Source of the DNA: Octopus vulgaris
Lineage: Eukaryota
Assembly (NCBI GenBank): GCA_951406725.2
Contig: OX597829.1
Span: 14,508,001 to 14,572,000 of the forward strand
Direction: 5' to 3'
Length of the DNA stretch: 64,000 nt
The notes under the pieces were generated by a model. It made no database searches. It was not told where the DNA came from and saw only the letters and a list, made by a program, of their open reading frames with translations. Both the position numbers and the translations under genes were made by a program. This document shows, one piece after another, positions 6,965 to 59,443 of the stretch (the stretch's first letter is position 1; each line of letters begins with the position of its first letter).

Positions 6965-7640
6965 TTAAGGTATGTAGAAAAATACAACATGGACAAGAAC
7001 GTATAACTCTTAGAAGACGACACAATAAACACGGACAGGACATTCGAAACCCTCAGTCTTCAGTCAAGAACCGGATCATCGTAGTAATTTCGGCTGATTA
7101 ATCTTGAGATTACTAGATCACGGCCAGCCCTCCAAGAAAAACCAAGCAACAAGCATTAGAAAAACTAAGCTGGAAGCGTAGATTTCCTGGAAGAAGGATC
7201 GAATGCATACGAACACCAGGACAGCAAAAGGGACAGATATAAAAAAACAAAAAACAATAATGGAATACAGAAACATGAAATACAGAAGCATTAACGGTGA
7301 AAACAACAGTGTCTTACGACTGATAACAAGCAAACAAATTTTTTCTCTGGCGCAATGGAAAAAGCCTTTATAGTGGCGGACGAAAACAGCGATGTTAACA
7401 AGACAAGGGTCAGAAGCTGAAAGGCAGATTTCGGCCAACAGTCACGTGACAGAGAAGAGGGAAAAGAAAAGAAAGGGAAGCAAAGGAAGAGAGAGAGAGA
7501 GGGAGAGAGAGAGAGGAGGGACAAACGCAACAAAGAGAGAGAAGAGAGAGAAAGAAGGAATCAGAGAGGAGAAGGGATGGGTGTCGAAGAATGACCTGTG
7601 AGTGCAGAGCGAGACAAAGAAATAGGAGGGTAGTGGAAGA
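6965..7640 (-). mobile_element. Non-coding retroelement 3' end (PLE-like) carrying a permuted hammerhead
   Basis: Unique-looking segment between (TA)n tracts; on the minus strand a pyrimidine-rich tract precedes the ribozyme fold. PLE assignment is inference, no ORF present. Confidence 0.5.
7041..7205 (-). ncRNA. Non-circularly permuted hammerhead ribozyme fold (copy A)
   Basis: Stem II GGCTG/CAGCC then GAA; stem III TAGTAAT/ATTACTA; C17 at 7108; stem I TCAAGA/TCTTGA then CTGAAGA; extra stems CCG-GATC/GATC-CGG and CATTCGA/TCGAATG. Confidence 0.8.
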
Positions 7641-8150
7641 CTAGACCAAAGAATCAGAGGAAAGAGAAGAGAAAAAGAGGATGAGTAGAGAGAAAAGAGA
7701 GAGAGAGGGGGACAGATCAAGTAAAAATGAGAGAGAGAGAGAGACAAACAGAGAGTCGTACCAATTATTAAGAATATATATATGTATATATATATATATA
7801 TATATATATATGTATATATATATATATATATATATATGCATATATATGTGTATATATATATATATACATATATATATATATATATATGCATATATATGTA
7901 TATATATATATATATATACATATATATATATATAAAATAAATGCTTATTTGTATATGCATATATATATATACATCCATATATAATATATATATTTATATA
8001 TAATATATGCATATACATATATGCATATATATATGAAAATATATATATATATATCCATATATACATATGCATATATATATCCATATAATATATCCATATA
8101 ATATATCCATATAAATATATATATATATATATATATATATATATATATAT

Positions 8151-8735
8151 AGGTGAGAAAGTTGGTGTGTGATAGCACGTGGTTGAATATATAGAAAATA
8201 GTAAAAAGTGAAAAAACTAAAGAAGGCTTGTTTTAAAAGGTTAAAAAATATATTTGAGTCATTATGTCAGAAGAATGTTATAAAATCTTTTCATACAGTT
8301 ACAGAGTTTTTGAAGAAATTACCGGTTTCGTGTTAACTTTTCAAATTTCTCAAAACATCGTGTTATGTTTTCGTTATGAAGTGTAAAGAAGAGTTCCAGG
8401 TAAGGGGAGGTAATAAGTGATTTCTTCCGGTGTAAGGGAGATAATCGCTTTATATTTCTGGCCCCTTTTATTTAATGGGGTGAGTTTCTCTGTATAAGAA
8501 TGTTAGAGTGGTTAAGTTTGGGCTTATATTTTTCAATGAAGAATGTTTCCTTGATTTGTCTAATTTATGTTGGTGTTCCAATAGCACATTGATAAAATGG
8601 AAAGATTAAAAATTGTGGTAGTAGTTGCTTTGCGCATTTCTCAATATGCTCACTAAAGGGTATCATTCTGTATTCTGGGAATGCAATCTGTTGTCGATGC
8701 AGTGTGCATCTACGTCTGAGTGATAGTCCCGTTCT
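8151..8735 (-). mobile_element. 5'-truncated Penelope-like element: GIY-YIG C-terminus plus 3' pseudo-LTR
   Basis: Minus-strand 8733-8510 reads TGLSLRRRCTLHRQQIAFPEYRMIPFSEHIEKCAK...FPFYQC...*IRQIKETFFIEKYKPKLN (R..H, H, E, P.LN of PLE GIY-YIG). A hammerhead follows downstream; flanked by microsatellites. Confidence 0.8.
8314..8350 (-). ncRNA. Minimal type I hammerhead with U3-A8 core variant
   Basis: AGAAAT-TTGAAAA-GT(TAAC)AC-GAA-ACCGGT-A-ATTTCT: 6-bp stem I, palindromic stem III, GUA site. Confidence 0.75.
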
Positions 8736-8889
8736 TTAGTTTTTTTCACAATTTATTATTTTCTCTCTCTCTCTCTCTCTCTCTCTCTCTATATATATAT
8801 ATATATATATATATATATATATGTATATTTATTCTTTTATTTATTCTTTATTCTTCTATGCCCAAACGTTGTCACCATGCGGGGGGACC

Positions 8890-57660: not shown

Positions 57661-58048
57661 ATATATGAAATTAAATACTACACTCTTTTGTTTTCAAACT
57701 ATCGTTCATATATGAACGCACGAATGCCCCTGAAACACAAGCAACGAAAAAAAAACGACATTTGAACTCTGATCTCCCATGTATGTCTATCTGTCTGTCT
57801 CTCTTCCTCTTTTTCTCTCTCTTGTTGCCCACATGTAACCATCGTCCATCTTTCTTTTCCTCACATGGGCATCTTTCTTTTCCTGCACTATGTTCTAAAG
57901 ACTGGACTTCTCTTCCTTTCTCTTTCTCTTTTCTCTTTTCAAAGAAAATATTTCTCCCAGCGTTCACTATTTTCCTCTCGTTCTGTTTGTTTTTGTTCGG
58001 TTTCCATATTTGTTTTTGTTCGGTTTCTCTGTTTTTGTTCCCAACTTT

Positions 58049-58171
58049 GACCCTCTAGAAATCCAGAATTTTATTTTGGAATTTATGGGAGCAACTGTCT
58101 TCGAACATTCATATTGTCGTTGAATGCTCGAAATGAGGAATAGATAGACAGCCGACAACTGATGAAGGGTC
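58049..58171 (+). ncRNA. Non-circularly permuted hammerhead ribozyme fold (copy C)
   Basis: GACCCT/AGGGTC; hairpin; stem II GAGCA/TGCTC-GAA; stem III TTCAT/ATGAG; A17 at 58113; stem I TTGTCG/CGACAA-CTGATGA; extra CTGTCT/AGACAG. Confidence 0.85.
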
Positions 58172-59337
58172 GTTCTCTGTGTTACCTGTCCTGTTTTCCA
58201 TTTTTTCTCTTGTTTGCGCATTTAACTCGTTTGTTATCGTACTTCATGTTGTTTACTGTTGGTGACATTCTGTACCCATGTGCACACACACACACACACA
58301 CACACACACACATATATATATATATGTATATACTGAAGATGCGTAGCTTAGTACTTAGGTTAACTGGCTCACATTCTTAAGGTCGTATGTTCAGTTTCCA
58401 GCGACATGTTGCGTCCTTGAGCAAGACACTTTACTTTACATTGTTCTTATACACTCACCTGGCAAAAACGAATAATACCTGTATTTTAAATGGCCAGCCT
58501 TGGGATTTTCTTTGTCAGGTTCACTCTCCCTCAGAAAGACGTTAAAAGTACGCGTGTCTGTAGTTCTGAGTCACTTGCACTTTGATTTAACGGACTAAGT
58601 GTTTAGCTGATAAGATCAACTGGAATGCTTGTCGTCCTCACCCACGGGATTCCAGTTCATATCTATCTATCTATCTATCTATCTATCTATCTATCTATCT
58701 ATCTATCTATCTATCTGTCTGTCTGTCTGTCTGTCTGTCTGTCTGTCTGTCTGTCTGTCTGTCTGTGTATGTATGTATGTATGTATGTTTGTGTCTATCT
58801 ATCTATCATTTCATTTCATTAGTTTCGTCTATTTTTCAATACTTGACCTTCACCCCACTGATCCTTATTTCGTTGCCGAGTAAAGGATAGCACATTTACA
58901 CCCACATACGCATACACACATATACACATATGTATATATATGCACAAGCATTAATGTATATATAACTATGCGTGTAAATGTAGGAGTCTATATATATATA
59001 TACAGATAGGTAGATAGATATGCAACCCTATAGCCCAGGGCTAATCAGAGCTTTGTGAGTGGATTTAGTAGATGTAAAGTCAAAGAAGCCTGCCGTTTAA
59101 ACACCTGCATGTGAGTCTTTGTGCCTGCTTTTTTTCTCTACCACTCCGGAATTAGCGGTTCGGCAAAGGACACCGATAGAAGAAATACCAGATTCAAAGA
59201 ATAAGTAGAAGTGCAAATTCGTTTAAATAAAACGTCTGTATTACATGGTTGCAGTCTAGGGTGGAAGATGTCTTGCAAACAACTTGCACATGCAAGTGCT
59301 ATCAGTCAAAAATCCCGCATACCGGAGGCCGGAAGCC

Positions 59338-59443
59338 AGCAAGTGTATGGGGTCATCAGGAGAGAATGCGCGCCGTTTCGGGGCCTACTTCTCGACGGCA
59401 TCAATATGCACCGCCCCTTCACTGATATGAGGCCCCGCTTGCT
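59338..59443 (-). ncRNA. Non-circularly permuted hammerhead ribozyme fold (copy D) in LINE 3' UTR
   Basis: Stem II GGGGCCT/AGGCCCC-GAA; stem III TGCCGT/ACGGCG; GUC site (C at 59394); stem I GAGA/TCTC-CTGATGA; closing AGCAAG/CTTGCT. Confidence 0.78.

Follow-up and report, generated by a model that had tools for sequence, protein, structure and literature searches.

Four repeat copies in the window, that is, the whole 64,000-nucleotide stretch of Octopus vulgaris DNA analyzed here, carry the core of the hammerhead ribozyme in a strand order of which we found no description in our literature search, and we regard this split-core fold as a new variant, the seventh strand order, of a known ribozyme type. 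Judging from the sequence, split-core RNA should very probably cleave itself at H17, and it is very probable that the structure is an active hammerhead ribozyme in the seventh order. A preliminary description of the same DNA had proposed the core in this order, and both its coordinates and its predicted H17 positions agree with ours at all four loci (Table 1).

Table 1. Coordinates of the split-core copies in the window and of their host elements
Feature	Copy 1 (F1)	Copy 2 (F2)	Copy 3 (F3)	Copy 4 (F4)
Strand	-	-	+	-
Ribozyme	7041..7205	14825..14957	58049..58171	59336..59445 (decayed at hairpin/stem II strand)
Outer P0				59445-59438 with 59343-59336
P0a	7197-7193	14957-14953	58049-58054	59436-59433
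Hairpin P5	7192-7130	14952-14910	58055-58088	59432-59417
Stem II 5' strand	7129-7125	14909-14904	58089-58093	59416-59413
P4a	7124-7116	14903-14895	58095-58100	59412-59408
Stem III strand	7115-7109	14885-14882	58108-58112	59399-59395
H17	C17 7108 (predicted cut between 7108 and 7107)	C17 14881	A17 58113	C17 59394
Stem I strand	7107-7102	14880-14876	58114-58119	59393-59390
Stem II 3' strand	7096-7092	14871-14866	58125-58129	59385-59380
GAA	7091-7089	14865-14863	58130-58132	59379-59377
Stem III partner	7088-7082	14862-14859	58133-58137	59376-59372
P4b	7077-7070	14851-14842	58146-58151	59369-59365
Stem I partner	7069-7064	14841-14837	58153-58158	59364-59360
CUGANGA	CUGAAGA 7063-7057, then 2-nt linker	CUGAAGA 14836-14830	CUGAUGA 58159-58165	CUGAUGA 59359-59353
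P0b	7054-7050	14829-14825	58166-58171	59352-59349
Host element	6958..7777 (5'-truncated copy)	14631..15312 (5'-truncated copy)	57786..58279 (approximate limits, from BLAST ends)	LINE
LINE restriction-like endonuclease domain, C-terminal 85 codons and stop				59469..59726
LINE 3' UTR				59268..59468

Strand order and four-way junction

Hammerhead types I, II and III have the circular order C-G-S with a three-stem junction, which the window loci do not match; at all four of them the blocks run S-G-C along the RNA. Read as a circle, the fold consists of C, the stem II strand, P4a, S, G and P4b, the same circle as that of types SGC, CSG and GCS, and the chain is opened within block C, between A9 and G10.1. 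A9 runs on into P0b, P0a into the hairpin, and the 3' arm of the hairpin into G10.1. P0, hairpin, stem II and core form a four-way junction in every family, and in 20 of the 24 examples parsed this junction lacks linker bases; the hairpin, which the preliminary description gave in brackets, is not optional, and the junction was missed there.

Both CUGANGA (C3-U4-G5-A6-N7-G8-A9) and G12-A13-A14 are present at all four window loci, as well as at a fixed place in 26 of 82 LINE loci. All 24 distinct examples have the core, GAAA and an NUH triplet (GUC 8, GUA 7, GUU 6, AUC 2, AUA 1), together with the A15.1-U16.1 pair; the core, GAAA and the triplet were demanded by our search descriptor, and the evidential weight therefore rests on the control counts given below. 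The pair G10.1-C11.1 is invariant (24/24), stem III has 3-7 bp, up to 12, and P4 abuts stems I and II in most examples, forming a peripheral contact between both stems.

It is very unlikely that these RNAs are ordinary ribozymes of type SGC, where the strand after CUGANGA would be stem II and the upstream strand incidental, although block order, the short linker between stems I and II and the P4 helix are alike, in F2 weak G-U-rich pairing can follow a mismatch at 10.1-11.1, locus 3 came out of a loose scan as SGC with a 3-bp shifted stem, and the post-core strand is indeed the one employed in spider Naiads and protist-like LINE relatives. Of the 24 examples, 21 have no contiguous pair between this strand and the stem II 3' strand, and the others have two at most. 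The partner with which it covaries is P0a; that of the stem II 3' strand is the upstream strand. The SGC fold was rejected for the four window loci. As for the core stems assigned beforehand, GGGGCCT at locus 4, taken as a stem II strand, corresponds in the F4 family alignment to P0a plus the hairpin 5' arm; the alignment has a hairpin CCTCA/TGAGG followed by GGGGCC as the stem II strand, and stem II was thus mis-assigned in a window copy that is decayed at exactly this place.

Controls and covariation

Our descriptor consisted only of the core and stems I, II (with the upstream strand) and III. It matched exactly four sites in the window, which are the four loci above, and none in any of 60 block-wise dinucleotide shuffles of the window, so that the proposed comparison with shuffled sequence came out in favor of the fold. 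A 600-kb genome sample gave four further sites, against none in each of eight shuffles of that sample, and no complete fold was present in 40 viral loci picked up by a loose core pattern. In view of these zero counts, and of zero matches in 361 kb of control DNA, a chance arrangement within AT-rich repeat DNA is extremely improbable, even though the null attained all four flexible helices in 0-11 of 40 shuffles per row. In the fold-score shuffle control, the null maximum exceeded the observed score in 5 of 32 rows, including that of the Naiad copy F5, with its weak P0.

Every helix of the split-core fold covaries. Compensatory pair types occur at variable positions of stems I, II and III, P0 and P5, in alignments whose anchors were partly chosen by pairing. 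As an independent check, the hairpin was placed solely by anchors chosen separately for P0 and stem II, and 73 of 100 cells paired, compared with 35-52 after sliding. A second check, a MAFFT alignment of 22 sequences made blind to structure, has 76.8% of its cells paired (58.6% when shuffled) and a covariation of 0.463 (0.085-0.236 when slid); P4 is 62.8% paired on this alignment, with three of its four pairs changed on both sides.

Programs for nested folding recovered P0 and the hairpin in some cases and the whole fold never, and nested MFE folding gave z-scores of +1.4 to -4.7 by a method that does not represent pseudoknots. No Rfam match at gathering score was obtained in eight loci, which bears out the expectation that a standard search misses the fold, and no hammerhead was present among the best 150 of 488 matches in an Rfam scan of the window. 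Those listed lay below gathering score and were due to chance, for example miRNA matches driven by microsatellites.

Host elements

Each of the four window loci belongs to a high-copy repeat family, and the octopus genome is estimated to contain ten thousand or more intact-looking ribozymes. That unrelated retroelement families share the fold, as had been proposed, is supported by F4, which is a LINE, and by F5, which matches a Naiad Penelope-like 3' end. The proposed location at retroelement 3' ends holds as regards the 3' regions, but the ribozymes lie 126-250 nt short of the fixed 3' ends.

F4 and a further family, F6, show the pattern of a LINE with a single ORF, reverse transcriptase followed by a C-terminal restriction-like endonuclease, a label that we presume from the motif and for which Pfam assigned no family. 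The F4 C-terminus has 36% identity (E 7e-39) to the single ORF (1136 aa, with RVT_1) of one LINE locus, L186, to which the N-terminal piece of F6 is also related (E 5e-6). The F4 ribozyme starts about 25 nt downstream of the LINE stop, and the window copy has its fixed 3' end at 59268, without poly(A), 126 nt beyond the predicted cut. In this LINE clade, which may be HERO to judge from its C-terminal motif, the 26 ribozymes among the 82 metagenome and genome loci lie in the 3' UTR, on the sense strand and 79-604 nt past the endonuclease domain; the remaining DNA of these loci (360,928 nt) gave no split-core match. Viral contigs scanned with the LINE protein gave no relative. In protist-like LINE relatives the post-core strand serves as stem II. 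Two short protein fragments in the window were assigned no Pfam family; downstream of the window's GIY-YIG fragment lies a motif of canonical type instead.

F5, the fifth family, was found in flanking DNA; one of its loci (L090) agrees by eye with the octopus Naiad consensus sequences at their 3' end. Naiads of octopus, squid and coral, which are Penelope-like elements, carry the split-core fold at the 3' end. Among 17 Naiad 3' ends read by eye, a complete non-circular fold was recognized in eight (four split-core, two SGC, two CSG) and a partial fold in two more; by such reading, spider and nematode Naiads have SGC and CSG forms, and the core is degenerate in one spider consensus. The other seven had no fit (Omin, Adux, Skow-1, Dst-1, Tama and the records taken as Chem-4 and Ebur), five of which are flagged incomplete in a published table (Craig et al., 2021, PMC8557442).

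F1-F3 have traits like those of Penelope-like elements (PLEs) and retrozymes, namely tandem copies that are head-to-tail or partial, partial copies in inverted orientation, a fixed 3' end and microsatellite targeting. The F1 unit is non-coding, 843-861 nt long and arranged elsewhere in tandem arrays, and the tandem F2 unit is also non-coding (about 835 nt); their window copies end within (TA)n at fixed 3' ends, 6958 for F1 and 14631 for F2, which are 150 nt and 250 nt beyond the cut, respectively. F3 is an older repeat, with copies about 90% alike across the ribozyme and often adjoined by an inverted partial copy. A search of the fetched loci and flanks for an autonomous partner of F1-F3 (RT plus GIY-YIG) found no linked ORF. 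Published non-LTR retrozymes are defined by a type I hammerhead per unit; the F1-F3 units carry the split-core form instead.

Probable genomic traces of cutting

Junctions were tallied by eye among the first 100 matches listed per search, in which only TA-flanked copies are visible. For F1, 46 of the 57 listed 5'-truncated copies near the site begin exactly at N1.1, the predicted cut, four begin at +1, and seven retain C17. Position -2 has a longer microhomology than the cut site, and the distribution (46 at N1.1 vs 4 at the better-microhomology site) has p ~2e-10. Minus-strand counts were 606 for the interval +7..-23 and 112 for -4..-34, and the ten copies fetched, varied in sequence, were all TA-flanked inserts that extend for about 130-150 nt from the cut to the 3' end. 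Such short copies beginning at the predicted cut suggest cutting in living cells, and the pile-up of F1 junctions is indirect evidence of in vivo cleavage. Transcript end processing, as previously suggested, may be traced indirectly for F1 and weakly for F2 and F3. None of 25 listed F2 loci has a junction exactly at the cut, 20 having it at +4..+9 with TA microhomology, and the F3 cut falls on an ATA microhomology.

Because F2 and F3 junctions track TA microhomologies, and the core of one spider Naiad consensus is degenerate, one may think of a conserved non-catalytic structure, such as a protein binding site, with the pile-up caused by microhomology or by pausing of reverse transcriptase. We consider this unlikely, on the basis of the single-nucleotide F1 peak and of catalytic nucleotides retained although all stems vary; furthermore, the partners of strands near N1.1 would already have been copied when the enzyme arrives, and no pause would be expected.

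Units of the same F1 array are 0.5 substitutions apart (8 pairs) and those of different arrays 3.9 (145 pairs), and unit lengths and variants are private to each array; F2 arrays (2.5 within, 4 pairs; 4.1 between, 24 pairs) show no clear within-array uniformity. We see roughly even chances that a circular RNA is the template for tandem copies. It is possible, though somewhat doubtful, that the active ribozyme processes linear RNA only, giving the unit downstream a 5' end or limiting full-length transposition, and that read-through transcripts left uncleaved, rather than circles, are the source of tandem and full-length copies. Full-length copies do retain sequence on both sides of the cut, F2 arrays are mixed, no terminal repeat of the 3' product was found in one F6 copy that has its 5' end, transcription of uniform arrays also predicts array uniformity, and the SGC ribozymes in the literature work slowly, at 0.007-0.19 per minute (Eckert 2023, PMC10085705). 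The array-private lengths and variants of F1 and the four helices that keep the cleaved strands together argue against processing of linear RNA only, as does the circle model proposed for PLE hammerheads (Cervera 2014, PMC4209133). Locus L317 was examined for one exact motif only.

Proposed working and comparison with known systems

In the working that we propose, the core would stack on stem II via the invariant G10.1-C11.1 pair, by which the normal active site would be rebuilt, and P4 would link stems I and II in place of the usual loop-loop contact. The 5' product would still be paired via P0, II, P4 and III after cleavage, and religation should therefore be favored. As the most likely role, we propose that reverse transcription starts from a fixed point lying 126-250 nt downstream of the cut; on cleaved linear RNA the enzyme would run off at the cut and leave short inserts as in F1, and on uncleaved or religated (circular) RNA it would run through, which would give full-length, terminally redundant or tandem copies. 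Related permutations do cleave in vitro (Eckert 2023, PMC10085705), which counts for the proposal, and a canonical PLE hammerhead was not needed for insertion in vitro (Frangieh 2024), which counts against it.

The non-circular class mentioned in the preliminary description does exist, but its six block orders, derived on the assumption that CUGANGA and the adjacent stem II strand are inseparable, exclude the split-core topology (Eckert 2023, PMC10085705). Covariation-supported forms were obtained there only from metatranscriptomes and metagenomes (metatranscriptomes for SGC, two metagenome sequences for CSG), and named genomes gave one weak bacterial GCS candidate only. The split-core fold resembles SGC, CSG and GCS ribozymes in the S-G-C order, the short link between stems I and II, the possession of all core nucleotides, the pseudoknotted core and an extra helix, here P4, that connects stems I and II at their far sides. 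It differs in that the stem II 5' strand and P4a sit 5' of block S, that A9 is unlinked to G10.1, with P0 and the hairpin forming a four-way junction instead, and that it occurs in animal retrotransposons in thousands of copies. A perfect four-helix junction places the catalytic arms of the hairpin ribozyme as well; its catalytic core is unrelated to that of the split-core fold, in which the junction breaks the link between core and stem II.

Type I and minimal hammerheads of PLEs and animal retrozymes (PMC4209133; bioRxiv 10.64898/2026.07.22.740005) are alike in their 3' repeat position, non-coding tandem units and, as proposed, a cycle of cleavage and circularization; they differ in being circular permutations that often have a weak helix III and need dimers, whereas the split-core fold should work as a monomer. 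Naiads, with their 'HHR_half_core', have been reported to lack the canonical hammerhead (Craig et al., 2021, PMC8557442), and they share (TA)n targeting with F1-F3. R2-type LINEs carry HDV-like ribozymes at their 5' ends (referred to in PMC7650587 and PMC13725137), which are likewise self-cleaving RNAs inside a restriction-like-endonuclease LINE; the split-core ribozyme differs from them in being of hammerhead class and in the 3' UTR, between ORF and priming end.

Significance

The split-core fold runs counter to an explicit structural assumption about the best-studied ribozyme, namely that A9 and the stem II strand must stay joined. The single-nucleotide pile-up of 5' junctions provides a genomic test for in vivo cutting, which earlier RNA-seq did not show for a canonical PLE. 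We lean toward the wider reading that the seventh permutation is the standard 3' ribozyme of the LINE clade and of many Naiad/Penelope-derived elements across animals, that Naiads collectively use all rotations (SGC, CSG and split-core), that retrotransposons are the main reservoir, and that the junction may switch between cleaved RNA, giving short inserts, and intact or circular RNA, giving full-length and tandem copies, with the cut recorded in the genome. The finding assigns to a LINE clade a 3' UTR ribozyme that lies between ORF and priming end, offers a possible answer to the apparent absence of a PLE-type hammerhead in Naiads, and shifts non-circular permutations from rare environmental RNAs to abundant copies in one animal genome.

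Structure and abundance

The four hammerhead-like loci of the preliminary description (loci 1–4) were present as described, and each proved to be a repeat, with 1233, 1681, 3382 and 2305 first-look candidates for the respective families F1–F4; among the 40 candidates scored per family, identity was about 100% in F1 and F2, about 90% in F3 and 89–97% in F4. Family alignments and the parse of 32 examples gave a single layout throughout. The 5' half runs P0a, hairpin P5, stem II 5' strand, P4a, a linker and stem III strand-U-H17-stem I strand; the 3' half runs a short linker, stem II 3' strand-GAA-stem III partner, a linker, P4b, stem I partner-CUGANGA and P0b. 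In this split-core form, a hammerhead of S-G-C block order opened between A9 and G10.1, the chain passes from A9 to P0b, from P0a to the hairpin, from the hairpin to G10.1 and from C11.1 to G12, and the A9–G10.1 bond is thus predicted to be replaced by a four-way junction. The junction has no unpaired base in 20 of the 24 distinct examples (the 32 minus eight rows of near-duplicates, decayed copies and other forms), F1 being an exception with a linker of 1–2 nt past A9. The strand earlier named as stem II of locus 4 had to be reassigned, because the family alignment identified it as P0a plus a hairpin arm; stem II is instead formed by the following G-run, which is damaged in the window copy and whose exact intact stretch occurs in 8 of 30 F4 copies. 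When the post-core strand was taken as stem II, as in the published permutation SGC, no stem II formed in 21 of 24 examples. Across families, the P4 pair nearest stems I and II is G-U in a great many cases, which may point to a conserved tertiary feature.

Where stems I, II, III, P0 and P5 vary among the 24 junction-anchored examples, several pair types occur, and G10.1-C11.1 and A15.1-U16.1 are invariant; this table is partly circular, because pairing guided the choice of anchors. A non-circular check was made of the hairpin, with the P0 and stem II anchors picked separately and the bases between them scored: 73 of 100 cells were paired versus 35–52 in slid registers (25 sequences, misses included). 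The covariation claimed earlier was borne out on a structure-blind MAFFT alignment of 22 sequences, where 15 named pairs from stems I, II, III and P4 were 76.8% paired versus 58.6% when shuffled, and covariation was 0.463 versus 0.085–0.236 when slid, kinship among the sequences being only partly controlled.

The strict descriptor (core plus stems I, III and II with its upstream strand) likewise passed the proposed shuffle check, finding four intact sites in 60 stretches of 10 kb and none in eight shuffles. Because one of these sites lies in a stretch adjoining the window, the density is put at 5–7 per Mb, or very roughly 5,000–50,000 intact split-core sites in the 2.8-Gb animal genome. Canonical type I was represented in the same sample by six sites, and the published permutations SGC, CSG and GCS by no intact one.

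Host elements

F1 and F2 are tandemly arrayed non-coding units of 833–866 nt whose fixed 3' end lies in (TA)n, and F3 has adjacent inverted copies; these are Penelope-like traits. An autonomous partner of F1–F3 was looked for, and no linked ORF was seen in the loci fetched. Long polypyrimidine tracts seen by eye in F1 and F2 tandem units (L094, L003), and a 3' splice-site-like motif in the F1 unit, bring to mind the intron retained by Penelope-like elements. The window itself contains a fragment that we take to resemble the GIY-YIG endonuclease of such an element, although Pfam gave no match to it; a pyrimidine-rich UTR separates it from a type I-like hammerhead.

Coordinates of individual features
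Feature	Location	Strand	Remark
GIY-YIG-like C-terminal fragment	window 55916-56107	-	resemblance by motif
Minimal type I-like hammerhead, decayed core	window about 55020-55069	-	downstream of GIY-YIG-like fragment
F6 example	L303:292-1000		N-terminal zinc-finger region joined to 3' UTR with ribozyme
F4 copy with partial tandem duplication	L057:1380-1500	-	break just past GAAA, restart in ORF end

The F4 ribozyme lies past the stop codon of an ORF that, over its C-terminal 206 residues, is 36% identical to a 1136-aa RT-bearing ORF; one of the protein matches of the F4 ORF carries the label Octopus. The C-terminal motif of the F4 ORF is presumably of the restriction-like-endonuclease LINE type, and the LINE may be 'HERO-like', the HERO name being in published use (PMC7650587). 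A scan with a 40-sequence alignment gave 82 LINE loci (80 from metagenomes and 2 from genome collections), 73 with at least 200 nt downstream. The split-core fold occurred in 26 of the 82, on the sense strand 79–604 nt past the endonuclease domain, and nowhere else in 360,928 nt of the same loci, these counts including several near-duplicates and, among the misses, several loci with decayed copies. By eye, L231, L233 and L236 are fitted better by SGC, with a stem II of 2 bp, than by the split-core form. The 3' UTRs of these divergent relatives and of L240 have S-G-C order with the 2-bp stem II directly past A9, which is possibly the ancestral state of the split-core form; telomere repeats (CCCTAA)n lie downstream in L233 and L236. 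Two contigs in bacterial genome bins (L261, L262) bear this eukaryote-type LINE with its ribozyme and are probably host contamination. The F4 copy with the partial tandem duplication (L057) is suggestive of a template switch within the ribozyme. F6, adjoining the window and with 1354 first-look candidates, is an internally deleted derivative of F4's LINE clade, roughly 0.75 kb long.

According to Craig et al. (2021; PMC8557442), Naiads are without canonical hammerheads and eight, including Ovul and Esco, are flagged 'half core'. By eye, Naiad_Ovul and the record preceding it match the flanking Naiad-like family F5 (L090) at their 3' ends, and together with the protein match labelled Octopus this makes the window octopus-like. 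Among 17 of 54 Naiad 3' ends read by eye (Obim, Sdum, Hcon, Chem-4 and Ebur named from table order), the split-core fold was found in Obim and Ovul, in Esco, where stem II has one mismatch and the hairpin is weak, and in the coral Amil, where all six helices are present and the junction has no gap. Type SGC is seen in the spiders Smim and Sdum, the latter with a degenerate core, and type CSG in the nematodes Hcon and Hpol; the ostracods Dst-2 and Dst-3 have the order SGC, a long insert and an indistinct stem II, and none of these forms fits the remaining seven of the 17. Every fitted form is a rotation of a single circular order. In the PMC8557442 supplement, the record preceding Naiad_Amil has in its 3' UTR, in place of a hammerhead core, a motif that we take to resemble the twister ribozyme, and Naiads may therefore swap ribozyme classes.

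Junctions and mechanism

Reverse transcription from a fixed 3' end on cleaved RNA is expected to run off at N1.1, the first base 3' of the predicted cut after H17 (C17 in F1); junctions were tallied by eye among the first 100 matches listed. In the first 21 TA-flanked F1 loci listed, 6 begin at the cut, 12 at +2 to +7 and 3 upstream. Minus-strand F1 counts, one row per locus, were 606 in the interval +7 to -23 versus 112 in -4 to -34. Of the 57 F1 loci listed that start no more than 6 nt from the cut, 46 do so exactly at N1.1 (two ambiguously), 4 start at +1 and 7 keep C17, and the -2 site, despite its longer microhomology, was used by only 4 loci listed (p about 2e-10). All ten cut-start F1 copies fetched are inserts of about 130–150 nt that begin at the cut and run to the 3' end, and they differ in sequence, thus representing independent events. 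No F2 junction falls exactly at the cut among 25 loci listed (20 at +4 to +9, 5 upstream); among 46 F3 loci listed, 7 are at the cut, where there is microhomology, 32 downstream and 7 upstream. In F2 and F3 the junction step is visible yet confounded.

Strand order, pairing, hosts and the junction step are observations; mechanistically, the core would stack on stem II across the four-way junction and cleave after H17, cleaved RNA would give short inserts, and intact or religated RNA would give long and tandem inserts. Cleavage would sever the LINE ORF from the priming end, so that full-length copies would need intact or religated RNA. F1 arrays differ by 0.5 substitutions within (8 pairs of distinct units) versus 3.9 between arrays (145 pairs), a uniformity expected from one circular template and also from uniform read-through transcripts. 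F2 arrays show no clear contrast of this kind, with 2.5 substitutions within (4 pairs) versus 4.1 between (24 pairs).

Relation to published work

Eckert et al. (2023; PMC10085705) give six block orders, each assuming an uninterrupted block C, with SGC, CSG and GCS validated in vitro and one bacterial GCS candidate as the only permuted form in a named genome. For hammerheads of Penelope-like elements, cleavage and circles have been proposed (Cervera 2014); internal RT initiation has been shown in a study that found no reads ending at the cut (Frangieh 2024). In the portions available, a 2026 retrozyme preprint confines its search to type I, a 2026 NAR paper limits its citations on alternative hammerheads to Eckert, Forgia and a third reference, and nothing matching appears in a 2026 ab initio ribozyme preprint, whose supplements are possibly relevant. 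Our literature search, covering few subscription journals, turned up no account of the split-core topology and none of retrotransposons with permuted hammerheads. The observation is real; the split-core hammerhead is very probably catalytic and by its predicted topology falls outside the six named permutations. Its distribution in retrotransposons is wide and previously unreported.
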